Source of the DNA: a candidate division WWE3 bacterium
GTDB lineage: Bacteria > Patescibacteriota > WWE3 > UBA101185 > UBA10185
Direction: 5' to 3'
Length of the DNA stretch: 64,000 nt
NCBI GenBank assembly: GCA_052035175.1
Contig: JBPOHV010000001.1
Span: 703,771-767,770, forward strand
This document shows positions 9,956-36,682 of this stretch, in pieces. The notes beneath the pieces are model-generated. The model worked only from the letters and a program-made list of their open reading frames with translations, was not told the DNA's origin and made no database searches. The first letter of the stretch is position 1. The number at the start of each line of letters is the position of its first letter. A program made the position numbers and the translations under genes.

Positions 9956-11026
9956 CTATACATTAAATCTGAACTCTACTACATCTCCGTCTTGCATAAT
10001 GTAGGTTTTTCCCTCTGTTCTAACCACGCCGGCGTCTCTAGCAGCTTTCCAGGTTTTATAGAATATGAAATCTTTATACGCCAAAACGTTTGCACATATG
10101 AATCCACGCTGGAAATCTGTATGTATTTTACCTGCCGCATCATAAGCTGTATCCCCAATATTAATAGTCCATGCCCGAGTTTCTTGCTCACCTGCAGTCA
10201 AAAATACCTGTAAACCCAACAAAGAAAAGCCTTGTTTTATTACTTTATCTAACCCGGTGTACTCTTGCCCCATATCGCTAAGATAGTTGTGTCTTTCTTG
10301 ATCAGAGAATTCTATAAGCTCTTCTTCTAATTTTGCGCTTATAACAACATATGCGTCGCTTGGTAATAAAAAGTCTGGTGCATAATCTAATTTGATTTCA
10401 TCAACATTTAACACATATAAGACTGGTTTTGCAGTTAAAAGGTCAATATCTTTTATTCTTTCTTTTTCTTCATGTGTTAAAGAAACACTACTTGCTAACT
10501 CGCCAGTTTCTAAAGCGGCATATAACTGTTTCAAAACAGCTAGTTTAGCAGGAATCTCTTTATCTGGAGTTCTGAGTAATTTTTCTAATCGTTGTATATG
10601 TTTTAATAGTACATCTAAATCGGCTAATATGAGTTCTGTATTAATAGTTTGTATATCGTCTTTTGGTGAGACTGCACCAGCACGTATTACATTCTCATCA
10701 TTAAAGGCACGTACTACATGCAAAATAGCATCTACTTTACGTATATGATCTAAAAACTTGTTACCCAAGCCTTCTCCTTCATGCGCACCTTTAACCAAAC
10801 CTGCGATATCGTAAAAAGTTATAAGCGCAGGAACAATCTTTTTAGTCTTTACTAAATCACCCAAAACTTGAAGACGGCTGTCTGGTACGTCAACTACACC
10901 TACATTTGGCTCTATAGTGGCAAACGGATAATTCGCTGCCAAAGCCTCGTGTTTTTTTATAAGCGCATTAAATAAAGTTGATTTACCGACATTGGGTAAG
11001 CCTACTATTCCTACAGATAAACTCAT
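9956..11026 (-). CDS. ychF: Ribosome-binding ATPase YchF
   Basis: GIVGLPNVGKSTLFNAL P-loop and a C-terminal TGS domain. Confidence 0.9.
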   Translation of the reverse strand: MSLSVGIVGLPNVGKSTLFNALIKKHEALAANYPFATIEPNVGVVDVPDSRLQVLGDLVKTKKIVPALITFYDIAGLVKGAHEGEGLGNKFLDHIRKVDAILHVVRAFNDENVIRAGAVSPKDDIQTINTELILADLDVLLKHIQRLEKLLRTPDKEIPAKLAVLKQLYAALETGELASSVSLTHEEKERIKDIDLLTAKPVLYVLNVDEIKLDYAPDFLLPSDAYVVISAKLEEELIEFSDQERHNYLSDMGQEYTGLDKVIKQGFSLLGLQVFLTAGEQETRAWTINIGDTAYDAAGKIHTDFQRGFICANVLAYKDFIFYKTWKAARDAGVVRTEGKTYIMQDGDVVEFRFNV

Positions 11027-11052
11027 GCTGAGAGTATACCAGAAGTAAAAAA

Positions 11053-11094
11053 AGGACTGTCCTTTAAGAGGTCAGTCCTCTATGAGGACTGATC
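11053..11094. repeat. REP-like palindromic element (GAGGTCAGTCCTC tat GAGGACTGATC)
   Basis: Inverted repeat in the ychF divergent intergenic region. Same core as the elements at 21175, 23514, 28578 and 29239. Confidence 0.6.
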
Positions 11095-11116
11095 TTGTAT
11101 ATGTATAATTTCTTTA

Positions 11117-13068: not shown

Positions 13069-14460
13069 CTAACTGCGTCTCTTTATTCTAAATCTGCCAT
13101 CATCCAAATCTTCTACAGTATAACCAAGGTCCAAAATTTGTCTGCGAATCAAGTCGGCTTTATCAAAAATACCTGACTTTCGATACTCGTTACGCGTTTT
13201 CACCAAATCCAAAATGGTTTTTGGTACATCAAAGCCAATATAATTGACCAACTTTAAGCCCAATACCTCATCAATTTTTAAGATAGTTGCAACTTTGTCT
13301 TCTTCGGCAATATCACTTTTTATAATTTCCCAAACAACGGCTAATGCTTTGGGCATATTTAAATTGTCGTAAATAGCGTCTTCAAACTGAGAAATAAAGT
13401 TTTTATTCACATGCGCGTCTGGATTTTCTTTATACCCTGACAACACATCACATAATTTTTTGTATGCATTTTGAGCAGCCTGCAATGACGCCCATGAAAA
13501 GTTTATCGGGCCATCATATATTGCTGTCATATAAAAATATCTAAGGCTCAACGGATCGAATCCTCTATCTTCAATATCAGAAATCGTATAAGCATTATTC
13601 AAACTCTTGCCCATACGGCCACCATCTACTTGTAAAAATGCACCATGCACCCAATAGTTACAAAATGTCTCTCCTGTAGCGCATTCTGCCTGTGCAATTT
13701 CATTTTGATGGTGTAACTTGAGGTCCTCGCCACCAACATGTATATCAATATGATTTCCAAGTTCTGCCATAATCATTGCTGAACACTCAATATGCCATCC
13801 AGGAAACCCTACGCCCCATGGAGATTCCCACTCTTGCCAACGCTTTTCATTAGTAGGAGATAATTTCCATAAAGCAAAATCCATCGGGTGCTTTTTCTCT
13901 GGGTTTGGTTCTATACGCGCACCTTCAGAAAATGAAGCGTCTGATAAGCCCGTTAGTGCCCCATATTTTTGAAATTTCTGAGTATCAAAGTAAATACCGT
14001 CGGTAATTCTATATGTAAAACCAGTACGCTCCAGTGTACGAACCAAAGCTATTTGTTCTTGTATATAATCTGTAGCTTTGGTGAATTTACGAGGTTTAAG
14101 ATAATTTAACTTTTCATAATCAGAAAAAAACGATTTAATATAAAAATCTGCGATTTCTCGAGCGCTTTTACCTTCTTTAGAAGCAGCTTTTTCCAACCTA
14201 TCTTCGCCTTCGCTCGCATTACCTTTGTTATCACCCGTTAAATGACCAACGTCTGTTAAATTCATTATAAAATCAACACTATTGCCTTGGAATAATAATG
14301 TGCGATGTATAAGGTCACTCAAAAAGAACGTACGATAGTTCCCAATTGAAGGATAGTCATAAACTGTTGGGCCGCATGTATACATTTTGACCTCACCGGT
14401 TTTCATAGGCGAAAATACTTCTATTTTTTTGGTTAAAGAGTTGTGTATCTTAAAACTCAT
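13069..14460 (-). CDS. cysS: Cysteine--tRNA ligase
   Basis: YTCGPTVYDYPSIGN (HIGH region) and RMGKSLNN (KMSKS). Confidence 0.9.
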   Translation of the reverse strand: MSFKIHNSLTKKIEVFSPMKTGEVKMYTCGPTVYDYPSIGNYRTFFLSDLIHRTLLFQGNSVDFIMNLTDVGHLTGDNKGNASEGEDRLEKAASKEGKSAREIADFYIKSFFSDYEKLNYLKPRKFTKATDYIQEQIALVRTLERTGFTYRITDGIYFDTQKFQKYGALTGLSDASFSEGARIEPNPEKKHPMDFALWKLSPTNEKRWQEWESPWGVGFPGWHIECSAMIMAELGNHIDIHVGGEDLKLHHQNEIAQAECATGETFCNYWVHGAFLQVDGGRMGKSLNNAYTISDIEDRGFDPLSLRYFYMTAIYDGPINFSWASLQAAQNAYKKLCDVLSGYKENPDAHVNKNFISQFEDAIYDNLNMPKALAVVWEIIKSDIAEEDKVATILKIDEVLGLKLVNYIGFDVPKTILDLVKTRNEYRKSGIFDKADLIRRQILDLGYTVEDLDDGRFRIKRRS

Positions 14461-20248: not shown

Positions 20249-21012
20249 GCTTTATCCTCCTTAACTTCTTCTTTTACTACTGTTGGTTCAATTTTACTCT
20301 TTTGTAAATTCTTTTCATACTCTGTATAACCACTCAAAATTGCATCTGCAATAGGTCTAACCATAGTAGCTATAGACATTATCGCGTCATCATTTCCAGG
20401 AATAGCGTAAGTAATATCGCGTGGGTCAGAGTTTGTATCTATAATAGCAACAACAGGTAAACCAAACACCAAAGCCTCACGAATTGCAGTACGTTCTCTT
20501 TTGGCATCAATTACAAATAAGACCTGAGGTTTATCGTCTAGACCTACAAGACCGCCGATTACATCATCAAGCTTTGCAATTTCTTTATCTAGCAATAATT
20601 TTTCTTTTTTAGTGTAATGAGAAAATTCACCAGTTTCTCTGTCTTTAACAAAACGTAAATATTTGTTTATATTATTTTTGATTTCACCAAAATTGGTAAT
20701 AGTTCCACCAAGCCATCTTTCTTTTACAAATTTGGCTCCGCAACGAAGGGCTTCAGATTTAACAACGTCTTTTGCTTGTTTCTTTGTACCTACAAAAACT
20801 ATTTTCTTGCCTTCTTTTGCTGCTTCGTATAAGAACTCACAAGCTACTTCCAAAGAATCTCTTGTTGTTTCCAAATCGATGATATGAATATCCTTTTTGA
20901 CTGTGTAAATGTACTTTTCCATGGCTGGATGCCATTTACGCACTTGATGCCCAAAATGAACACCTGCATCAAATAATTCTTGTATTGTTGGTAATGTATA
21001 TTTTTTTGACAT
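20245..21012 (-). CDS. rpsB: 30S ribosomal protein S2
   Basis: LFDAGVHFGHQVRKWHP. Confidence 0.9.
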   Translation of the reverse strand: MSKKYTLPTIQELFDAGVHFGHQVRKWHPAMEKYIYTVKKDIHIIDLETTRDSLEVACEFLYEAAKEGKKIVFVGTKKQAKDVVKSEALRCGAKFVKERWLGGTITNFGEIKNNINKYLRFVKDRETGEFSHYTKKEKLLLDKEIAKLDDVIGGLVGLDDKPQVLFVIDAKRERTAIREALVFGLPVVAIIDTNSDPRDITYAIPGNDDAIMSIATMVRPIADAILSGYTEYEKNLQKSKIEPTVVKEEVKEDKA

Positions 21013-21174
21013 ATAAACTAGTTAATCTTTTATTATTGGGTTCGGCTTCTATTCTAAATCTAAAAACATGAGCTATGAACCCTCACTTGCACCCCAAACG
21101 GGAGATTATTGCAAGACACTGTGTAAATTAACATAGAGAAAGCTATATGTCTAGAGAGTTATGGGAGTTATGGA

Positions 21175-21384
21175 GGGTCAGTCCCACCCAAGGACTGACC
21201 TTTATAGCATCTGTGCCAAAATGAAAGTTGTAAAACCAAGATAAAATAGACATTCTAATCGATTTTACAAAGATCGCATACTAAATTTTATAGAAATAAC
21301 GTGTAAAGTTACAGTAAATGTTGTTAGTATAGGTAATTGTAAGTACAGATGTTAGATAGGTACAGTACTTTTGAAGGACAGATC
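21175..21384. repeat. Composite repeat unit: REP-like hairpin (GGGTCAGTCC-n6-GGACTGACC, 21175-21201) plus the AAGTACAGTACTT-TGAAGGACAGATC motif (21359-21384)
   Basis: A homologous unit of about 210 bp lies at 23514-23729 in the same orientation. Confidence 0.6.
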
Positions 21385-21385
21385 T

Positions 21386-23488
21386 TTATTCGTCAACCAC
21401 TACAGGAAGCGGATTCTTCCAAGAAGAATAATCGCAATCTGGATATTTGCTGCACCCATAAAACACTCGCCCCTTGGCTTTTTTGATAATGACATCACCT
21501 TCACTGCATTTTGGACACTTCATACCGATTTTTTCTAAATACGGCTTTGTAGTTTTGCATTTTGGATAATTGCTACAAGCCAAAAACTTTCCAAATCTGC
21601 CAGCTTTCAATACAAAAATACCGTCTGCACATTGATCACACTTACCAAAGTCTTCTTTTTCTTCCTCGGCTGTTTGATCTATAGGCCTTGCATAGTTACA
21701 AGCAGGATAATTTGAACAACTAATAAATTTACCAAACTTACCCAGCTTGAATATAAGATCGCTTCCGCAGTCTGGACATTTTTCTCCAACTGGGCCCAAA
21801 TTTGTAACGTCTCGTTTTGATAGCTTAGACTCCCCTTCTTCAACTTCTTTTTCAAAAGGAAGATAAAAATCTCTAATCATTGGTACCCATTCGGCTTTAC
21901 CTTCGGCTATATCATCGAGCTTTTCTTCCATTTCTGCAGTGAATGTATAATCTACAATGCCCGGAAAATGCTCTACCAACAAGTCTATAACTACATAAGC
22001 CACATCTGCAGGAAAGTAATAACGGCCTTCTTTTATTATGTAGCCTCTATTTTTTATATTAGAAATAGTAGGTGCATATGTAGAAGGTCTTCCAATACCA
22101 AGTTCTTCTAGCTTTTTGATCAAAGACGCGTCTGAATATCTGGCTGGTGGCTGTGTAAAATGTTGATCCTTTTGAGTAGACAACAAATCTAATACATCGC
22201 CTTCGTTCAAATCTGCCGGTAATTCTTTGTCTGAAGATTCATTTTCCAATCCCAAGTCTCTCTTTACTTTCAACCAACCATCAAATTGCATGATTGAACC
22301 ACTTGTTTTGAGTTGGTAGCCTTTTTTTGAAGCTACTATAATAATCGTTTGCTCGTATTGTGACGACGTCATTTGGCTAGATAATGCTTGTGAATATATC
22401 AATGCATAAACATTTTCTTCTTCTTGAGTCTTCAACATAGTTGGAACAAAAGTAAGGTCTGTAGGTCTTATAGCTTCGTGAGCTTCTTGTGCATTCTTTG
22501 ACTTTGTTTCATATGCGATTGCTTGTGCTGGTAAATATTTATCGCCATATGACTTTTTGATAAATTTTCGAGCTTGATCTATAAATTGAGGAGATAAATT
22601 TGAAGAATCTGTTCTGTGATATGTAATATGGCCTTTTTCAAATAACTTTTGAGCTGCGCTCATAGTTTTTTGAGCCGGGTATCCAAATATATTCGCAGCT
22701 GCTTGTTGCAATGTAGATGTACGATAAGGAGCAGATGGGTTGCGTTCTCTACTAGATTTTTTAATCTCTAAAATAGCAAATTCGTCTGATTTCAGATCAT
22801 TTTCTATTTTCAAAGCTTGCTTATCGCTTTGTATTTCTAAGGGTTTACCTTCAAATTTATCTAAGTCTGAAGTAAATTGTGCTTTTTTGTTATTTTTAAA
22901 GTCTGCAGTTATGCTCCAATACTCATCTGCTTTAAATGCATTGCGTTCGCGTTCTCTTTCTACTATCAATCGCACAGCTACGCTTTGAACCCTTCCTGCA
23001 GAAAGGCCGTATCGCACCTTTTTCCAAAGTAATGGGGACAATTTATATCCTACTAATCTATCTAATATACGCCTAGCCTGCTGAGCATCTACTAATGCAG
23101 TGTTTAAAGTGCTTGGATGAGCAAATGCTTCTTCTACTGCTGTTTGAGTAAGTTCATGAAATACTACTCTGGAAAATTCGTGTTTATCCTTCTTATGAGT
23201 AAGTAAATGCTTCAGATGCCACGCTATGGCTTCCCCCTCGCGATCTGGATCAGTCGCTAATATTATGTTGTCAGCTGTTTTGGCTTCTTTTTTCAAAAGG
23301 TTAATAGTTTTTGTGGCTTTTTCGGGCACTACATACTCTGGTGTGAAATCTTTTTCTATATCTACACCCAAACCACTTTTTGGCAAATCTCTAATATGCC
23401 CCATCGAGGCTTCTATTTTATATTTTTTGCCTAAGATTTTGGTAAGTGTCTTGGCTTTTGTTGGCGATTCGACTATGACTAAGTCCAT
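21386..23488 (-). CDS. topA: DNA topoisomerase I
   Basis: Toprim domain (LVIVESPTKAKT), topo IA core and three C-terminal C4 zinc ribbons. The start is set at the ATG at 23488; the upstream 55 ORF-track codons cover a REP hairpin. Confidence 0.9.
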   Translation of the reverse strand: MDLVIVESPTKAKTLTKILGKKYKIEASMGHIRDLPKSGLGVDIEKDFTPEYVVPEKATKTINLLKKEAKTADNIILATDPDREGEAIAWHLKHLLTHKKDKHEFSRVVFHELTQTAVEEAFAHPSTLNTALVDAQQARRILDRLVGYKLSPLLWKKVRYGLSAGRVQSVAVRLIVERERERNAFKADEYWSITADFKNNKKAQFTSDLDKFEGKPLEIQSDKQALKIENDLKSDEFAILEIKKSSRERNPSAPYRTSTLQQAAANIFGYPAQKTMSAAQKLFEKGHITYHRTDSSNLSPQFIDQARKFIKKSYGDKYLPAQAIAYETKSKNAQEAHEAIRPTDLTFVPTMLKTQEEENVYALIYSQALSSQMTSSQYEQTIIIVASKKGYQLKTSGSIMQFDGWLKVKRDLGLENESSDKELPADLNEGDVLDLLSTQKDQHFTQPPARYSDASLIKKLEELGIGRPSTYAPTISNIKNRGYIIKEGRYYFPADVAYVVIDLLVEHFPGIVDYTFTAEMEEKLDDIAEGKAEWVPMIRDFYLPFEKEVEEGESKLSKRDVTNLGPVGEKCPDCGSDLIFKLGKFGKFISCSNYPACNYARPIDQTAEEEKEDFGKCDQCADGIFVLKAGRFGKFLACSNYPKCKTTKPYLEKIGMKCPKCSEGDVIIKKAKGRVFYGCSKYPDCDYSSWKNPLPVVVDE

Positions 23489-23513
23489 GATTGCAAGGAT
23501 ACCACACAGAGAC

Positions 23514-23729
23514 AGGGTCAGTCCCCTTCGGGGACAGACCCTACCCAGATGTGTACCAAAACAAACCTTATAAATACAACCAAAAATGACTAGAAGGTGC
23601 ATATCCACCAAAGATCGCACCGCAAATCCGGAAAACTTTTCAACATAAAACAACGCATATCCGTATAGCTATAATAAAGCCACGGTACAGGAGTTAACCA
23701 AGTACAGTACTTCTGAAGGACAGATCCTC
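23514..23729. repeat. Second copy of the composite repeat unit: hairpin AGGGTCAGTCCCC-ttc-GGGGACAGACCCT (23514-23542) plus the AAGTACAGTACTTCTGAAGGACAGATCCTC motif (23700-23729)
   Basis: Direct-repeat partner of 21175-21384. Confidence 0.6.
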
Positions 23730-23781
23730 ACTTAGTCCCGTACCTACAACTTAGAATGGCGGTCGCGTATGTATAAAACTA

Positions 23782-23810
23782 TTGACAAAACCTATGATAC
23801 CTGATATATT
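23782..23810 (+). promoter_or_regulatory. Sigma70-like promoter (TTGACA, 17-nt spacer, TATATT)
   Basis: Read directly from the sequence; it lies upstream of the lipoprotein gene. Confidence 0.5.
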
Positions 23811-23893
23811 ATCTATCGTTAATACCCAAACATCGGCATATCTCCCATACCGGGAAAAACAAAAATATGCCTAACAATTCAAGGAGAAATCTC

Positions 23894-24280
23894 ATGTTCA
23901 AAAAAATTGCCCCCTACCTCGCCTTACTGTTACTGGTCCTCGCAAGCCTGGCTTGCGGACTGGGCAACCCCCAAAAGATTGGGGGGACGACCGACGGACT
24001 TTCGGGGCAATCCCCCACGGCGGAAGCCGTAGAGGCACCAACTGAAAGCCAGACGGGCACTATGCCCGCGATGGTCATCGGTACTCAACCAAAAACCTTG
24101 GCTGAATTCCGAAGCTGCAACAAAACACTTGTCGATTGGCAAGCCCTCAAAAACACCTCAACCCTAACCGACATGGCTACCCCATGCCGAGTTGCCGCCT
24201 GGCAGGGCATTGAGGTTGATGGGGTCGTCTACGATCCCACCACTGAAGAGGGCTTTAATGCCCTCTCGGCGATGCCCTAA
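23894..24280 (+). CDS. Small secreted protein or lipoprotein, GC-rich and codon-atypical
   Basis: AAGGAG RBS, signal peptide MFKKIAPYLALLLLVLASLAC. High GC3 (CTG, GGC, CCC and ACG codons). Confidence 0.5.
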   Translation: MFKKIAPYLALLLLVLASLACGLGNPQKIGGTTDGLSGQSPTAEAVEAPTESQTGTMPAMVIGTQPKTLAEFRSCNKTLVDWQALKNTSTLTDMATPCRVAAWQGIEVDGVVYDPTTEEGFNALSAMP

Positions 24281-24397
24281 GGGCATCACAAAGCCGCCAT
24301 CTGGCGAAAAGGAAAAGTCTATCGAGCTTCGGCTTGATAATCAACTTTATCTTTTCCCACTGGCGGCTTTTGTCGTTCTATAGGTAGTTTCTAGTAA

Positions 24398-26242
24398 CTA
24401 ATACCCCTGTTTCTCAAACCACAAGTCCATCAACTTCCTCGCTATTGGAGCAGCGTCGTCAGCTCCTCCACCACCACCTTCTATAAAAACAGTCAAAACT
24501 ATTGGTTTAACATTGTCTTTTACTTCTAAAGGACCAAAAACAGTAAATAACGCGTGTGTACCGTATTCGCCATTTGGCTTGTAATACTCAGATGTACCAG
24601 TTTTCCCAGCTATCTCTAAACCTTTATGCTTATCAGCAAAATCAAAAAAAGGATACCCTGTACCTCCGGGGCTGACAGCTAGCTTTAAACCATCCCTTAC
24701 AATAGCAAGCGTCTGATCATCGACAAAGCCTTGCGACTGAATTTGTGAAGTATGCTCAGGCTCGCCTTCAATTTCATTTACGACTCGAGGTACAAAAATC
24801 TTACCTTGAGATGCAAAAAGGCTTGTAGCCTGGTTTACCTGCAAAATAGTGCCCAAGACGTCACCTTGCCCTATCGAAGTAATATAAGTATCTCCCAAAT
24901 ACCAAGCTCGTGATTTACCATCAGGAAAATAGCCTGCAACCTCACCATTGAGGTCTATCCCAGTTTTTTGACCAAAGCCAAACAATGTTGCCCATTTGTT
25001 TATTTTATTTATTCCTAAGCCACCAACACCGTTGTATCCCCCACCCATTGTATAAAAATAAGTATCATTGCTTACTTGCAAGGCTTTGAATAAATCTACA
25101 TCGCCATGACCATCTAATTTCCAATTTTTAAAAGTCGACCCACCTATACTTATAAAACCTGGATCAAATATTTGATATTTTTCTGAAACTAATTTTTCCA
25201 TCAAAATTGCACTTGCCATAACCATTTTAAAAGTTGAACCAGGTGGATACACAGCAGCTATTACACGATTAAAAAATGGAAATCGTTCATCAGTATTTAA
25301 CTTTGATAACTCTTCTGGAGAAATATTGTTAGACATTTTGGTTGGGTCGAATGAAGGATAGCTAACCATAGCCAAAACACCGCCAGTTGTCGGATCTTGC
25401 GCAATAATCGCACCTCCTGTTGATTTTGCTTCTGGGTCGTCTAATTTGGTTTTTAATAAATCGTACGCTAAAACTTGAAGATCTTTGTCTAAATAAGTTT
25501 TGAGATTGCGACCAGCAAATGCATCGCGCTTGTCTATTTGCTTAAAGTGACCACCCAAAGAATCTGATTCGACAATTTGCGAACCTGGAATACCAGATAA
25601 ATACTTATTATAAAATTGTTCTACTCCAGTTTTACCTACAATTACAGGAGATAAACTGTCAGACAAGCCCACATACCCTAATACGTGCGCAAAAGCTTCA
25701 CCATAAGGGTATTCGCGAACTGGAAAAGAGCTTATAGAAATACTAGAAAACTTATCGATATTTGAATCGATAGGCAAGATTTGCTCTTTTGACAAACCAG
25801 AGAGTATCAAAATATTTGTGTTATTTTTGTTTATTTCTTCTATTATTTTTGTATCGTCAAAAGGAATTAGTTTTTTTAATGTCTCTACTTCAACAAAACA
25901 TTTATCAAATTTTCCAGCAGCATCGACGCATAATCTTGTATTCATTTGTATACTAAAGGCTGGCTTGTTTCTGGCCAAAATCTCGCCATTTCTATCAAAA
26001 ATAGCACCGCGTTCTGCAGGAATAACAAATTCTAGAAATCTATTGTCATCAGACAAATTCTTGTATTTATAATAATCTACAACTTGCAACTGGACACTTC
26101 TAAAAATAAAAAGACAAATGAAAGCAACAACAGATACCGATAAAAACACCAAGAGTCGTTTTTTAGATATTTCATCTACACTAAACTTTTTGTCTTTGGG
26201 AGTATAAAAAGGTACAAAGTCAAAAACCTGATCCTCATTCAT
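24398..26242 (-). CDS. mrdA: Penicillin-binding protein 2 (peptidoglycan D,D-transpeptidase)
   Basis: GSTFKMV (SxxK), SNDTYF (SxN) and GKTGTSE (KTG), plus an N-terminal TM helix. Confidence 0.85.
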   Translation of the reverse strand: MNEDQVFDFVPFYTPKDKKFSVDEISKKRLLVFLSVSVVAFICLFIFRSVQLQVVDYYKYKNLSDDNRFLEFVIPAERGAIFDRNGEILARNKPAFSIQMNTRLCVDAAGKFDKCFVEVETLKKLIPFDDTKIIEEINKNNTNILILSGLSKEQILPIDSNIDKFSSISISSFPVREYPYGEAFAHVLGYVGLSDSLSPVIVGKTGVEQFYNKYLSGIPGSQIVESDSLGGHFKQIDKRDAFAGRNLKTYLDKDLQVLAYDLLKTKLDDPEAKSTGGAIIAQDPTTGGVLAMVSYPSFDPTKMSNNISPEELSKLNTDERFPFFNRVIAAVYPPGSTFKMVMASAILMEKLVSEKYQIFDPGFISIGGSTFKNWKLDGHGDVDLFKALQVSNDTYFYTMGGGYNGVGGLGINKINKWATLFGFGQKTGIDLNGEVAGYFPDGKSRAWYLGDTYITSIGQGDVLGTILQVNQATSLFASQGKIFVPRVVNEIEGEPEHTSQIQSQGFVDDQTLAIVRDGLKLAVSPGGTGYPFFDFADKHKGLEIAGKTGTSEYYKPNGEYGTHALFTVFGPLEVKDNVKPIVLTVFIEGGGGGADDAAPIARKLMDLWFEKQGY

Positions 26243-27509: not shown

Positions 27510-28547
27510 TCAAATTTTTACTGTATTCAAAAGCTTTTGATCGTCTAGTACTTTGCCACAACCGCGCACTACACAAGTTATCGGATCTTTTGAAATATTG
27601 ACTGGAACACGCAATTCTTCTGATAACAATTTATCAAGGCCGCGCAACAAAGAAGTGCCCCCAGCAAGAACTATGCCATCACGAACTATGTCAGTCATCA
27701 AATCTGCCGGAGTTTCTTCTATTGCATCTTTTATACCATCGATAATTATATTTAAAGGTTGACGTAATGCTGCTCTGATTTCAGCAGATGAAACTTCTAC
27801 TGCACGCGGTAAACCAGACTTCAAATCACGCCCTCTTAAAGTGGCGGTATGCTTATCTTCGTTTGGAAATGGATAAACGTTGCCGATTAAAAATTTTATT
27901 TCTTCCGCAGTACGTTCACCCAATAATAAGTTGTGTTGATTCTTGGCAAAATTAACTATTTCCACATCAAACTCATCCCCTGCTACGCGTATTGATTTAT
28001 TTACTACTAAACCTCCAAGTGAAATAACGGCTATTTCACTTGTACCTCCTCCCATATCTACGATCATGGCTCCATTTGGTTGTGTAACATCGATACCCGA
28101 GCCAATGGCGGCAGCCATTGGCTCGTACAATAGATGCACTTCACGTGCACCTGCATTCTTCGCAGCATCAACAACTGCCTTACGTTCAACCGAAGTAGCC
28201 CCAGAAGGAATACCTATTACAACACGTGGCTTTGGGATACGTGGGAATTTTGTTGGCGTGTCGTGTATTTGCTTTATAAAATAAGAAATCATCTTTTGAG
28301 CCGCATTAAAGTCTGAAATAACTCCATCGCGCAAAGGTCTAATTGCCTCGATGTTCGCAGGAGTTTTACCAAGCATTTTTTTTGCCTCATATCCTACTGC
28401 CAATACCTCACGCGACTTTTTCATCACTGCAACAACGCTAGGTTCACGTATTATTATCCCTTTTCCTTTGACGTACACCAATGTATTGGCTGTACCCAAA
28501 TCTATGCCTATATCATATGAAAAATATTGCAGCAATGAGCTAAACAT
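27510..28547 (-). CDS. mreB: Rod shape-determining protein MreB
   Basis: DIGIDLGTANTLVYVKGKGIIIREPSVVAV actin-fold motifs. Confidence 0.9.
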   Translation of the reverse strand: MFSSLLQYFSYDIGIDLGTANTLVYVKGKGIIIREPSVVAVMKKSREVLAVGYEAKKMLGKTPANIEAIRPLRDGVISDFNAAQKMISYFIKQIHDTPTKFPRIPKPRVVIGIPSGATSVERKAVVDAAKNAGAREVHLLYEPMAAAIGSGIDVTQPNGAMIVDMGGGTSEIAVISLGGLVVNKSIRVAGDEFDVEIVNFAKNQHNLLLGERTAEEIKFLIGNVYPFPNEDKHTATLRGRDLKSGLPRAVEVSSAEIRAALRQPLNIIIDGIKDAIEETPADLMTDIVRDGIVLAGGTSLLRGLDKLLSEELRVPVNISKDPITCVVRGCGKVLDDQKLLNTVKI

Positions 28548-28577
28548 ATCAGGATGATATTACCACAGAGACTATGC

Positions 28578-28607
28578 AAGATCTGTCCTTCATAAGTACA
28601 GTACTTT
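28578..28607. repeat. REP-like element, reverse orientation (GATCTGTCCTTCATAAGTACAGTACTT)
   Basis: Reverse complement of the 21359 and 23700 motifs; 60 nt upstream of the RAYT gene. Confidence 0.6.
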
Positions 28608-28666
28608 CTAATATCGTTAGAATATACTCCCTTACTTTTTGTACATAAAAAGTTTATTTTTACGGT

Positions 28667-29272
28667 GTGCCTGAGAGAAACTCAATCAAACAATACATAT
28701 CAAATGGTACATATCATGTTTATAATCGCGGCAATGATAAACAAACAATATTTAATGATGATGAAGACTATAGATATTTCTTGCACTTACTGGCGGCATA
28801 TTTAACTAAACCAAATCATTTCCAAGAAATCAAAACAAGGTCCTTTTATAAAAAAATAAAACTTCATGCCTACTGCTTAATGCCAAACCATTTTCACTTA
28901 CTGCTAACTCAAAAAAGACGCATGGACATGGCAAAGTTTATAAAGTGTTTATCAACCAGATATACGCTATACGTAAATAAGAAATACAAAAAGACTGGAC
29001 ATCTGTATCAAGGAAGGTATAAAGCGCGCCTAATTACTTCTGATGCGGACTTTATGAACACAAGCAAATATATACATCGCAATCCGACAGATATTCCAGC
29101 AAAACTAGAATCTTATCAATATTCTAGTTTAGGGACATATCTCAGTAAACATCGTACACATAGTTTTCTCTACCACAAAGATATTTACAAGTATTTCAAT
29201 AACAATACACATGAATATAAAGCGTACATATTTCTAGAGGATCAGATCTTGGAAAGGACTGATCTGCTATAA
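28667..29272 (+). CDS. REP-associated tyrosine transposase (RAYT; IS200/IS605-like HUH Y1 transposase)
   Basis: YHVYNRGN, the HUH motif HFHLLL and the catalytic-Tyr motif GHLYQGRYKARLI. GTG start. Confidence 0.7.
   Translation: MPERNSIKQYISNGTYHVYNRGNDKQTIFNDDEDYRYFLHLLAAYLTKPNHFQEIKTRSFYKKIKLHAYCLMPNHFHLLLTQKRRMDMAKFIKCLSTRYTLYVNKKYKKTGHLYQGRYKARLITSDADFMNTSKYIHRNPTDIPAKLESYQYSSLGTYLSKHRTHSFLYHKDIYKYFNNNTHEYKAYIFLEDQILERTDLL
29239..29267. repeat. REP-like element, forward orientation (GAGGATCAGATCTTGGAAAGGACTGATCTG), overlapping the last RAYT codons
   Basis: Core GGACTGATC; inverted relative to the copy at 28578. Confidence 0.5.
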
Positions 29273-29279
29273 TCTCCAC

Positions 29280-29804
29280 ATGGCCGTTGTACCTATAGTC
29301 AAATACCCACATAGAAAGCTTACTCAAAAGTGTGTTCCAGCGGTTGGATTTGGAGAAGAAACAAAAGAAATTATAAAAGACTTAATAGATACATTAGAAG
29401 CCGCGAAAAATCCTGAAGGGGCTGGCCTGAGTGCACCTCAAATAGGTGCCCTCAAAAGAATCTGTGTAGTCAAAAAATTTCTTAGCAAAAAAGAAAACGG
29501 CGATAAAGAATATAAAAACATAGTATTAGTCAACCCTGTTATTACTAAAGTCTCTAAACAAACGAGCATAGATTGGGAAGGCTGTTTGAGTATTGATGAT
29601 ACATATGGACAAGTTGAAAGACCTCAAAAAGTACGTCTAACTTCATACGACGACAAAGGAAATATAATAAAAGTTGACGCATCGGGCTTTCTTGCACGAG
29701 TTATTCAACACGAGATCGACCATTTAAATGGCGTACTCTTTACTAGCAAAGTAATTGGGAAAACGTTAACTGAAAAAGAACTAGATAGTATGTATAGTAA
29801 ATAA
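29280..29804 (+). CDS. def: Peptide deformylase
   Basis: GAGLSAPQIG, EGCLSI and HEIDHLNG. Confidence 0.9.
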   Translation: MAVVPIVKYPHRKLTQKCVPAVGFGEETKEIIKDLIDTLEAAKNPEGAGLSAPQIGALKRICVVKKFLSKKENGDKEYKNIVLVNPVITKVSKQTSIDWEGCLSIDDTYGQVERPQKVRLTSYDDKGNIIKVDASGFLARVIQHEIDHLNGVLFTSKVIGKTLTEKELDSMYSK

Positions 29805-31301: not shown

Positions 31302-31376
31302 GCCTGGGTAGTTCAGTGGTAGAACGCTTCCATGGTAAGGAAGAAGTCGCGAGTCCGATTCTCGCCCCAGGCTCCA
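31302..31376 (+). tRNA. tRNA-Thr (anticodon GGT)
   Basis: Acceptor GCCTGGG/CCCAGGC, anticodon stem CTTCC/GGAAG with loop ATGGTAA, T-loop GAGTCCGATTCTCGC and a CCA end. Confidence 0.8.
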
Positions 31377-31623
31377 GTAAAACCATACCATGGGGCTAGG
31401 CCCGGCTTAACCCTTTTTAAAAATATACAGCTTCACCATAAGTTAATTTCACAACTACACAAATAAAGTATTAGGGATTGGTATTAAAGTGATTAAATGC
31501 GTTCGAGTAAAAGAATAGAACGAAGGCTTAGCCCGGCTAGGCCCTTAATAGAACCGCACCGGCGAGGAAGAAAAAGGAAGGCATGGCCTAAGGCCTTTCT
31601 CCCTCACCGGGCACACGGCAACT

Positions 31624-32106
31624 TTAAGGAGTTGCCAGTTTAAAGTAATATATCGGGTATGTTATCTCCCCCCCGGAGACGCCAGTACCTGTTAACGTGA
31701 GGATAGGTACCTCACGATAAATTTTCTCTAATGGCCCGGAGAAAGGGCCATCAGTGTAGTACGGTACTGTAAGGCTTGGAAAATCGTACCAAAGACGACC
31801 TTCCACATTACGCGGGGCATAAGCTGTCAGGACGACCCGATCGTCCAACAAGCCCCGCTTACCACCAGCAGTAACATGGAGACGTAAATTCTCCACGAAA
31901 CCGTTTTCGAATTTTAAGACGAGAGTGAATTCACTCCCATCAAAAAATTCGGCAGTACCATCCTGCTTAAATTCAGCGCTCGTAATAGATATGAGCGCGC
32001 TGTCTTCAGGACCAGTTGGTCCTGAGGGCGTTGGCGAGGAACAACTTACCAACCAACAAAAAACCCCTAATAATAATAGGGGCATCAACCATTTTGCGCG
32101 TTTCAT
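31624..32106 (-). CDS. Lipoprotein, codon-atypical and GC-rich (lipobox LVSC)
   Basis: MKRAKWLMPLLLLGVFCWLVSC|SS signal and lipobox. Arg is encoded by CGC/CGG/CGT, unlike the AGA used in neighbouring genes. Confidence 0.5.
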   Translation of the reverse strand: MKRAKWLMPLLLLGVFCWLVSCSSPTPSGPTGPEDSALISITSAEFKQDGTAEFFDGSEFTLVLKFENGFVENLRLHVTAGGKRGLLDDRVVLTAYAPRNVEGRLWYDFPSLTVPYYTDGPFSGPLEKIYREVPILTLTGTGVSGGEITYPIYYFKLATP

Positions 32107-32276
32107 CGCGACCTCCAATGAAAAAAAGATTCTACTCTATCTCCAGCAGCTTGGTTGATAGAATTAGTATCAGATATACTACCCTATAGTTGTGTTTTTG
32201 GCAAATTAAAACTAGACCTGGTCTGACCAGGTCCTATATGTTAATCCCCCACTTTATGTGTATAATCATGTAGCCT

Positions 32277-32350
32277 AGGGGCGTCGTATAGTGGTAGTAC
32301 AGCGGTCTCCAAAACCGCTTGCGGGGGTTCAATTCCCTCCGCCCCTGCCA
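32277..32350 (+). tRNA. tRNA-Trp (anticodon CCA)
   Basis: Acceptor AGGGGCG/CGCCCCT, anticodon stem GCGGT/ACCGC with loop CTCCAAA, T-loop GGTTCAATTCC and a CCA end. Confidence 0.85.
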
Positions 32351-35655: not shown

Positions 35656-35681
35656 AAAGTATATCAGTAACTAGTTGTGCT

Positions 35682-35733
35682 TGGTGCACCGGATTGAAAG
35701 TGTGCCTCATGGCAAGTTATCAACCCAGTGCAC
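35682..35733. repeat. 52-nt GC-rich hairpin element, copy 1 (GGTGCACCGG...CCAGTGCACC)
   Basis: Near-identical to 36076-36127; an imperfect hairpin of about 22 bp. Confidence 0.6.
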
Positions 35734-35739
35734 CTGTGG

Positions 35740-35949
35740 TCATTTACGAGTTACTAATCTGTAAATGACCACTACTATAAGAAAAATGAACAGCAGCCCC
35801 GGGATGGGGCTTTCGGCGGCTTCAGCAGCCGCCATTTGCTCTGCGGATACCGAAGTACCCTGCAGAGCTGATTGATAGCATATCGGCCCTAAAAGGAGCG
35901 ATATGAGTAGAAGAAAAACAATTACCTGACTTTTAAATGTCCTAAGCAT
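35740..35949 (-). CDS. Small two-TM membrane protein (69 aa: MLRTFKSQVIV...IYRLVTRK), codon-atypical
   Basis: AAGGAGTG RBS before the ATG at 35949; TTGCAA-15-TATAAT promoter at 36023-36049. The longer ORF-track start at 36126 covers the hairpin and the promoter. Confidence 0.5.
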   Translation of the reverse strand: MLRTFKSQVIVFLLLISLLLGPICYQSALQGTSVSAEQMAAAEAAESPIPGLLFIFLIVVVIYRLVTRK

Positions 35950-36075
35950 AGGACACTCCTTTCCAAGATTCCAATCTATGATAGGAAATAGAACCTTGGG
36001 TAGTTTGTATGGATAAGTAGAAATTATACCTAAATAGACGTCTTTGCAAATTTTAAAATTGTATTTTTTGAGTGT

Positions 36076-36127
36076 ATTACCCGATGGTGCACCGGATTGA
36101 AAGTGTGCCTCACGGCAAGTTATCAAC
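36076..36127. repeat. 52-nt GC-rich hairpin element, copy 2
   Basis: Lies 15 nt after the stop of the 36142-36525 gene. Confidence 0.6.
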
Positions 36128-36141
36128 CCGGTGCACCGTAT

Positions 36142-36525
36142 TCATGGCTTGTAACGCCAAACCATGAATGCGAACACAAATATCGCCAGAGCCGTCATTA
36201 CGGCGATGGCCACGATGGTTTGGCCAGTGGTACCAGGGGTACCAGTGGTAATCTCAGCAGCGGTGAGTTCTGGACGCTGTTGAGCGGCCCCCCCACCCCC
36301 ACTAACCAGAGGCAAGAAAACTGCTTCTGCAGCACCAGCTGCAGAGGTTGCTTCTTGCTGAGGTGTTTGGCCTGAGAAGTAGCCAAACACCGTTGTGTGG
36401 CTCGGGCCTAACCAAAAAATGGCAGCCCCTACCACCGCGATAAGAAGCACTGCGGCGCCAATAAGTAGTTTGGTGACATCATACTTTGCTATGACGCCGT
36501 CGGCGCTAAGTTTCGTTTTCATCAT
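36142..36525 (-). CDS. Small two-TM membrane protein (127 aa) with an Ala/Gly/Thr/Pro-rich linker, GC-rich and codon-atypical
   Basis: AAAGGAGTGA RBS; N- and C-terminal TM helices; basic tail RYKP. Confidence 0.5.
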   Translation of the reverse strand: MMKTKLSADGVIAKYDVTKLLIGAAVLLIAVVGAAIFWLGPSHTTVFGYFSGQTPQQEATSAAGAAEAVFLPLVSGGGGAAQQRPELTAAEITTGTPGTTGQTIVAIAVMTALAIFVFAFMVWRYKP

Positions 36526-36682
36526 TCACTCCTTTTCCAATTCCAAAGTTACAACCACACGGCTGAATAACTTTGGAACATTAGTAAGATAGAAAATATA
36601 CCTAAATAAGATTTTTTGCAAACCTATAGTTGCTAGAAGTTCTCCTGGTGACTCATAAAGTCTCCTTGATATAATTCCACAC

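Follow-up and report, generated by a model that had tools for sequence, protein, structure and literature searches.

Why should the topoisomerase gene topA of a very small bacterial genome lie between two direct repeats of about 210 bp? The stretch that raises this question, called the window below, comprises 64,000 nucleotides (nt) of contig JBPOHV010000001.1 (assembly GCA_052035175.1) from a candidate division WWE3 (Patescibacteria) bacterium with a genome of ~925 kb, and all window counts given here are within these 64,000 nt. One repeat unit, U1 (21175-21384), runs from the topA stop codon (21386) to the leader of rpsB. The other, U2 (23514-23726), has its hairpin end 26 nt upstream of the topA ATG. 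Both lie on the minus strand, which is also the strand of the neighbouring genes, and in this direction each consists of a degenerate terminal repeat, ~150 nt of sequence and then a hairpin. An earlier note on this DNA had described two direct repeats of ~210 bp around topA, and their coordinates, common orientation and common internal order were all borne out. We consider it probable that U1 and U2 are gene-less mini-cassettes, similar to miniature inverted-repeat transposable elements (MITEs) or to doublets of repetitive extragenic palindromes (REPs), and that they belong to a Y1 transposase system of the RAYT/TIRYT type (RAYT, REP-associated tyrosine transposase), whose gene sits 5 kb away.

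Along the plus strand the locus reads from the start of rpsB (21012, minus strand) through U1, topA (minus strand) and U2 to a GC-rich island (23727-24397) and the stop codon of pbp2 (24398). The topA gene (21386-23488, minus strand) encodes 700 residues with the Pfam domains Toprim and Topoisom_bac and three copies of Zn_ribbon_Top1, and is found in synteny in three related genomes (L005, L006 and L009). The window was assigned to WWE3 by its TopA homologs, the nearest relative being 65% identical. The start codon of topA is the ATG at 23488; the orthologs begin at an ATG of the MDLVIVESP type. A TTG-started open reading frame (ORF) reaching up to 23653 was rejected as an over-extension through U2, with a spurious N-terminal extension of 55 codons, and the topA start is thus corrected for annotation. 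The Logan assembly of run SRR34217543 agrees with the window letter for letter across 19,762 bp that include the region in full, which argues against mis-assembly, though both assemblies may share reads. The sole match in a blastn search of a phage database was a 131-nt stretch inside topA to Listeria phage records, and is irrelevant to the units.

Comparison with related genomes indicates which part of this arrangement is new. L005 and L006 keep the order fmt-def <> mreB-mreC-mreD-pbp2-topA-...-rpsB-tsf-frr-rseP, and L009 (WWE3, GCA_014729135.1) keeps it from fmt-def through mreBCD-pbp2-topA, with another gene following topA. In L005 and L006 the spacer between pbp2 and topA is 66-90 bp long and holds a promoter only, for example TTGACA-16-TATCCT-7-ATG in L006. 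Neither a U unit nor the Y1 gene is present at the locus in these two genomes, and their def-mreB slot is empty but for an unrelated 97-residue ORF in L006, which was rejected as a relic of the Y1 gene. Four additions to the conserved backbone set the present genome apart: both U units, the GC-rich island (670 bp) and the gene that separates mreB from def. Because the pbp2-topA-rpsB order is ancestral in relatives that carry no units, it was the units that were inserted around topA, and not topA that arrived on a cassette; topA is ancestral in its place and not mobile. In this way the direct repeats around an essential gene find an explanation: a small repeat element was inserted twice.

Alignment of U1 with U2 over their whole length gives 134 identical columns of 219 (61%). 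Taken in blocks of 30 columns, the identity is 70, 63, 47, 53, 53, 53, 77 and 100%, with the ends at 70-100% and the interior at 47-53% in this block-wise count. The interiors aligned on their own (153 and 156 nt) are identical in 91 of 164 columns (55%), with a global score of 2. Shuffled sequences scored -28.4 +/- 5.7 and none of 1000 reached this value; real 156-nt segments drawn at random from the window scored -27 +/- 7 and -34 +/- 7, and none of 1481 reached it. This alignment had been set beforehand as a test of the repeats, and the interior identity lies above background, so that more than the short motifs is shared. Since the interior score beats all shuffles and all real background segments, we regard the interior as homologous over its full length, and U1 and U2, judged on their alignment, as true homologs throughout with a heavily diverged interior. 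One conserved interior block, CAAAGATCGCA, is found in U1 and U2 only and is by itself uninformative; the frequency of GATC in the window equals expectation.

What, then, are the conserved ends? The hairpin of U1 (21174-21202) reads AGGGTCAGTCC-cacccaa-GGACTGACCTT and that of U2 (23514-23542) reads AGGGTCAGTCCCC-ttcg-GGGACAGACCCT, with one A.A mismatch and a 3' arm that matches the terminal inverted repeat (TIR) motif GGGGWSAS (PMC3733652). At the other end both units carry a 25-nt motif, GTACAGTACTT(T/C)TGAAGGACAGATC on the plus strand, for which 0.00 matches are expected by chance. On the minus strand this terminal repeat is GATCTGTCC-ttcaaaa-GTACTGTAC in U1 (21360-21384), where it abuts the topA stop codon, and GATCTGTCC-ttcagaa-GTACTGTAC in U2 (23702-23726). 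A third copy with two mismatches, in the opposite orientation to those of U1 and U2, lies on the plus strand at 28580-28604 (GATCTGTCC-ttcataa-GTACAGTAC), 62 nt before the start of the Y1 gene and 33 nt before the ATG of mreB on the other strand. Read on the gene strand the motif is GATCTGTCC-ttcaNaa-GTACWGTAC, that is, two 9-mers whose starts are 16 nt apart, and the hairpins have the same geometry. The 9-mer GGACWGAYC occurs ten times in the window against 0.83 expected, and all ten occurrences fall at the hairpins and motif ends of U1 and U2, at both flanks of the Y1 gene and in a solo three-arm hairpin cluster at 11054-11094 (GGACTGTCC, GGTCAGTCC and GGACTGATC at 16-nt spacing), which occupies a 90-bp divergent intergenic region. 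In an alignment of 16 sequences (13 hairpins from four genomes and the 25-nt motif) eight columns are invariant in all; the motif aligns without gaps, and the one exception is a single loop gap in one of the two 32-nt hairpins of L010. Because it shares both the 16-nt geometry and all eight invariant columns, this 25-nt second motif is a degenerate form of the hairpin repeat, serving here as the 5' terminal repeat of the Y1 cassette. It pairs at six of its nine positions, an odd form that is kept in all three copies.

The hairpin stems themselves are under selection. Within the hairpin alignment 86.5% of cells are paired, compared with 35-50% in slid controls. Seven of the 13 stem pairs change on both sides, one example being an A-T to T-A change at the third stem position among the hairpins of this WWE3 genome, and the covariation score was reached by none of 500 shuffles. 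A caveat is that the arms are themselves nearly palindromic, so flips of the central pairs may merely reflect the choice of strand.

The gene between mreB and def (28667-29272, plus strand) encodes a 201-residue Y1/HUH tyrosine transposase of the RAYT/TIRYT type, which we presume to be the enzyme acting in trans. It is co-directional with def, and only 7 nt separate its stop codon from the def ATG. The protein matches Pfam Y1_Tnp (PF01797) at 45.8 bits, where the cut-off is 23; the NCBIfam model REP_Tyr_transpos scores 52.8 bits, under its cut-off of 80, and the equivalog level is not reached. An alignment of 21 homologs shows H75 and H77 of the HuH motif and Y135 to be invariant, and CLMPNHFHL, FQGRYKA, YIHRNP and YSS to be invariant or nearly so. 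The nearest other database protein is 46% identical and comes from another genome. A sequence search of the Protein Data Bank (PDB) gave no match. We therefore turn to the fold: the AlphaFold2 (AF2) model, with a pLDDT of 87.5 and short C-terminal helices across residues 155-200, finds as its best PDB match the E. coli REP-associated transposase with its REP hairpin (4ER8; E 7e-6, TM 0.70), followed by the IS608, ISDra2 and IS200 transposases (TM 0.47-0.60 for IS608 and ISDra2; matches include 2A6O and 2XQC). Pfam detects no C-terminal helix-turn-helix (HTH) domain (Bac_DnaA_C, HTH_23 or HTH_28) and reports Y1_Tnp alone. Sequence motifs and the predicted structure thus place the protein in the Y1 (HuH) tyrosine transposase superfamily, with a fold that is RAYT-like in the model.

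The transposase gene forms part of a cassette of ~690 bp (28578-29266) composed of GATCTGTCC-7 nt-GTACWGTAC, the 201-residue gene and a hairpin GGWCWGWYC-7 nt-GGACWGAYC. Its layout is motif end, 62 nt, Y1 gene, hairpin; that of the units is motif end, ~150 nt, hairpin. The hairpin at the 3' end is degenerate (29240-29264, GATCAGATC-ttggaaa-GGACTGATC), overlaps the last Y1 codons and is followed by TGCTATAAT, 6 nt and the def ATG. The motif end of U1 is 87% identical to the Y1 5' flank over 39 nt, with a weak extension to ~97 nt, and this alignment scores 56 against 22.9 +/- 3.6 for shuffles. The hairpin end of U1 aligns with the Y1 3' end over 75 columns, reaching ~20 nt past the stem, and scores 35 against 17.2 +/- 3.2. 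The earlier note had called the hairpins REP-like and supposed a REP-type system, and this is supported: both types of end recur at the flanks of a Y1/HUH gene, and homologous Y1 genes share the hairpin core.

The link between hairpin and Y1 family extends to other genomes. Homologs of the Y1 gene at 42-47% identity (L009, L010/L011 and L012) are bracketed on both sides by GGACWGTCC hairpins, which read GGGACAGTCC-tttaaga-GGACTGTCCC on both sides of the gene in L009, AAGGACTGTCCT-yGC-AAGGACAGTCCTT in L010/L011 and AAAAGGACAGTCCTT-aaa-AAGGACTGTCCTTTT in L012, where more copies occur inside and after the gene. In L013 (Gottesmanbacteria) the arrangement is the same, with a different palindrome, TGTCAGGGTGWCACCCTGACA. 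Copies of the flanking palindrome were also seen inside the Y1 genes of L012 (10457-10475) and L013 (10164-10186); such copies inside the gene are described for TnpA-Y1 subclass 2.4 in the part of PMC6006769 cited here. A separate observation in L009 is a run of five GGACWGTCC arms at 16-nt spacing inside the coding sequence of pbp2 (13904-13976), a repeat insertion in a gene as reported for REPs. The Y1 gene occupies the same def/mreB slot here (28547-29280) and in L009 (9876-10702), in opposite orientations, the L009 copy being co-directional with mreB. Two histories are suggested by this: a long residence of the gene and an inversion, which could have run between the repeats at its flanks, or a hot spot for insertion common to both genomes, where the gene could have inserted independently.

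Because both types of end found in U1 and U2 also bracket the Y1 gene, we favour the view that the units are gene-less mini-cassettes: they keep both cassette ends in order, with ~150 nt of non-coding filler in place of the gene. By analogy with the published TnpA-REP (4ER8) and IS608 structures, and with reviews of these systems, the Y1 enzyme would recognise the hairpin that the repeat forms when single-stranded and cleave near it through the HuH/Tyr centre, and a unit would then be copied or moved in trans. Insertion was into two spacers of the conserved block mreBCD-pbp2-topA-rpsB-tsf-frr, spacers that happen to border topA. Selection for recognition would keep the ends near-identical and let the interior drift. 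The data themselves show the sequence homologies, the insertion of the units by comparison with relatives, the link of hairpin and Y1 gene across the family, the compensatory stem changes and the RAYT-like fold; mobilisation by the Y1 enzyme, and its part in conserving the ends, we infer from the analogy.

Several observations weigh against this proposal. The homology at the hairpin end is weaker than that at the motif end, its score being exceeded by 1 of 300 and 1 of 200 shuffles. All full units lie less than 8 kb from the Y1 gene, which local duplication would fit too, and their interiors hold no Y1 coding remnant that would speak for an origin by internal deletion. The motif end, pairing as it does, is too poor for recognition as a good hairpin, and the palindromic arms do not allow the fine orientation of the hairpin to be fixed. 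No shared target sequence is apparent at the three insertion flanks (TAAA, TGAG and GCAA). Finally, a scan with the 20-nt motif core GTACTTNTGAAGGACAGATC found no true relatives in genome_contigs (one match) or metagenome_contigs (two matches), collections that do not include the source genome; the three matches were rejected as chance, each lying inside unrelated coding sequence (e.g. ...GTFEGQI...).

Could the repeats instead serve the host? The earlier note had raised promoter and terminator modules as a possibility, and the repeats might be regulatory modules, either operator or promoter-proximal sites or RNA stem-loops, retained because the expression of adjacent essential genes selects for them, with U1 and U2 as duplicated control regions of the Y1 cassette that drive or insulate topA and the rpsB operon. 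We think this unlikely, though several features speak for it. On the gene strand, each motif copy has a gene downstream of it (Y1, topA and rpsB, respectively, for the three), and the conserved ends and diverged interior would suit such a role. As read from the sequence, the hairpins are also followed at once by extended -10 boxes, with the ATG 6-10 nt further on: in the window at def (TGCTATAAT), topA (TGGTATCCT), ORF 11117 (TGTATAAT) and ORF 9956-11026 (TGGTATACT), and in relatives at L009 mreB (TGCTAAACT), L009 def (TGGTAAAAT) and the L012 Y1 gene (TGCTATGAT). The U2 hairpin sits where relatives have the topA -35 box, as in the L006 promoter given above. However, the spacers are so short (~90 bp) that nearly any tolerated insertion adjoins a promoter, and the proximity may be a by-product. 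A promoter scan found 9 sites against 10.0 +/- 3.1 in shuffles, no excess, and a scan for the intrinsic-terminator pattern found none at the hairpins. The U1 hairpin is 160 nt from rpsB, with the conserved leader of rpsB itself in between; the relatives express the same genes without units; and a regulatory role gives no reason for finding these repeats beside Y1 genes in unrelated genomic contexts. A 12-nt similarity, GTCTCTGTG(TG)GTA, upstream of topA and mreB was discarded as not significant (at least two matches in 20 of 100 shuffles). It is also conceivable, but distinctly improbable, that the Y1 enzyme and its GGACWGTCC hairpins are a vertically kept, domesticated system of Patescibacteria, with U1 and U2 as portable operator or promoter modules at the -35 position. 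The hairpin modules would then serve extended -10, near-leaderless promoters of the essential genes def, mreB and topA and of the rpsB operon, itself essential, and extrudable palindromes flanking topA could tie its expression to supercoiling or to replication-dependent single-strandedness. The system is possibly old, because the core is common to four genomes with Y1 proteins 42-47% identical and because the def/mreB slot is the same, with opposite orientations, in two WWE3 genomes.

A further way to account for the units is as relics of extra full-length Y1 cassettes beside topA whose genes decayed, or as products of local duplication without a transposase, the mini-units never having been mobilised. 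Their end order is that of the intact cassette, they cluster less than 8 kb from the Y1 gene, and their deep interior divergence implies old copies; Group 1 RAYTs, where the present Y1 protein is placed by motifs alone, have the second-highest duplication rate of six groups in the data cited from Bertels et al. (PMC5581495). We nevertheless give this explanation little credence. A tblastn search with the Y1 protein finds no coding trace in either interior, its one match being the hairpin region itself, and the interiors are homologous throughout, which is not expected from two independent decays of 600-bp genes. As the interiors are mutually homologous, the 150-nt filler predates the second copy. 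Near-perfect ends are likewise hard to square with neutral decay. The earlier note had also raised the idea that direct repeats mediate duplication or excision of topA, and we took recombination in this broad sense, including amplification and cassette-like exchange, as another candidate. The repeats are direct and bracket exactly one gene, but gene order in WWE3 relatives shows topA to be ancestral here, near-identity between the two units (61% identical overall) extends over no more than ~25-27 nt at a stretch, and the Logan assembly shows a single-copy arrangement. An identical stretch of ~25-27 nt is a poor substrate for homologous recombination. Moreover, topA is normally essential, and its excision or loss would be expected to be lethal. 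This role is thus unsupported, and we hold it to be extremely unlikely. Scarcely more credible, and still very unlikely, is the idea that the units are two copies of a cis-regulatory RNA or of a gene for a small non-coding RNA. Folded as single-stranded DNA and as RNA, the units are more stable than shuffles (z -2.6 to -3.5), but the signal comes mostly from the single GC hairpin. The folds reveal no common interior structure, the predicted interiors of U1 and U2 being different, and at 47-53% identity no conserved structure is visible there. Against Rfam 15 the tRNAs alone reach the gathering score in the whole window, and 20900-24000 searched at E up to 10 gives nothing better than E ~1.

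The window contains a number of other features. Extended -10 boxes (TGnTAnnnT) located 6-10 nt before an ATG, without a Shine-Dalgarno sequence, were noted at 11027-11116, 21012-21130, 23489-23513, 28548-28579 and 29265-29279, a pattern pointing to mRNAs with no leader or almost none, both in this WWE3 genome and in related ones. The sequence upstream of rpsB (...GTGCAAGTGAGGG...CCCAATAATAAAAG) is shared with L006 in conserved form and is a possible leader for S2. The GC-rich island at 23727-24397, between the pbp2 stop codon and U2, has a GC content of 54-58% in a genome of 35% and is absent from relatives; it was rejected as part of U2, having no repeat arms, and is a separate neighbour. On the plus strand it holds an ORF that starts at 23867 or 23894 and ends at 24280, with a near-consensus promoter (TTGACA-17-TATATT), the ribosome-binding site AAGGAG and a signal of the lipoprotein type, MFKKIAPYLALLLLVLASLAC; among 5.8 billion proteins the product has no homolog but itself. 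The segment 23900-24290 folds unusually well (z -4.9 and -6.6), and 23690-24420 has no Rfam match beyond noise at E up to 10. Candidates for the identity of the island are a foreign gene and a structured RNA. Two further GC-rich islands are unlike this one: 31376-32277, between tRNA-Thr and tRNA-Trp, with a minus-strand lipoprotein-like ORF of 164 residues that matches no Pfam family, and 35656-36682, with two ORFs that likewise match no family in Pfam and, within the island, a direct repeat of 53 nt at 96% identity. From 47000 up to and past the last position of the window (64000), the plus strand carries a very long coding region with many repeat families of 150-300 nt (60-92% identity), which probably encodes a giant surface protein.

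How do the proposed mini-cassettes and their Y1 gene compare with known systems? There is precedent for REPs flanking Y1 genes (REPtrons) and for TIRtrons (PMC3733652, PMC6006769). Of the systems described, TIRtrons come closest; in these the Y1 genes (TIRYTs) are flanked by TIRs carrying GGGGWSAS that recur as dimers or clusters (Di Nocera et al. 2013, PMC3733652). TIRYTs have their equivalents in TnpA-Y1 subclass 2.1 (Quentin et al. 2018, PMC6006769) and in RAYT Group 1 of Bertels, for which the 16-mers at the flanks are present in about 12 copies per replicon (PMC5581495). As in these, a single Y1/HuH gene is flanked by partly self-complementary repeats that recur as singles, dimers or clusters. 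The subclass 2.1 motifs NH[YF]H, FQ, Y[IV]HLNP and SS, compared by eye from Table 1 of PMC6006769, have counterparts here in NHFH, YQ (FQ in most homologs), YIHRNP and YSS. The GGGGWSAS-type sequence GGGGACAG is present in the 3' arm of the U2 hairpin and in both L009 flanks; the flanks of the Y1 gene in the window read GATCTGTCC and GGATCAGATC, and those in L010 and L012 AAGGAC. In contrast to TIRtrons, the C-terminal HTH-type domain is not detected by Pfam, divergence has given the Y1 gene of this genome a different form of repeat at either flank, and the host belongs to the Patescibacteria (WWE3). Subclass 2.1 also differs in that the cited part of Quentin et al. (PMC6006769) reports no REP-like sequences for it, whereas the hairpins here are clear and show compensatory changes. 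The portions of the TIRtron and RAYT literature drawn on here hold no description of gene-less two-ended mini-cassettes with a 150-nt filler, and our literature search found no report of RAYTs or REPINs in Patescibacteria.

The REPtrons of Proteobacteria, exemplified by E. coli TnpA-REP (4ER8; Bertels & Rainey 2011), provide the best fold match of the Y1 model. Here too hairpin repeats flank the gene and are scattered through intergenic DNA in the window, a non-autonomous repeat unit would by analogy be mobilised in trans, and the Y1 gene looks single-copy, occupying the same def/mreB slot in two WWE3 genomes. The REP_Tyr_transpos score, by contrast, stays below its cut-off, and the GT[AG]G foot of REPs, as given in the cited part of PMC6006769, is absent, the feet being AGGG, AAGG or AAAA in 13 of 13 aligned hairpins; by this feature the hairpins are not canonical REPs. 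Nor do U1 and U2 resemble REPINs, in which two inverted REPs with a short spacer pair their ends into one long hairpin (PMC3337134): their ends are separate modules of 25-29 nt, ~150 nt apart and unpaired in the predicted single-stranded DNA and RNA folds. With the IS200/IS605 family the system shares a Y1 HuH transposase, sub-terminal secondary structures at both ends and a cassette size (~690 bp) similar to that of IS200, and with its MITE-like derivatives a gene-less form that retains both ends. It differs in its tyrosine motif, Y---NP (class 2) rather than Y---Q (class 1.1), in a fold nearer to TnpA-REP than to IS608 or ISDra2 by the TM values above, and in that neither an identical multi-copy gene nor a conserved target sequence was seen.

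The REP/TIR-Y1 systems on record come mainly from Proteobacteria, Cyanobacteria and Bacteroidetes, and the locus adds streamlined Patescibacteria, both WWE3 and others, to their range, with a hairpin core that is unusually conserved across distant members. A Y1 subclass reported without REPs can thus carry clear hairpin repeats. Hairpins placed systematically beside the promoters of essential genes, in spacers of ~90 bp, may affect core-gene expression in such very small genomes. If the Y1 enzyme does mobilise the units, then U1 and U2 would offer a simple substrate for finding what RAYT/TIRYT-type enzymes recognise.

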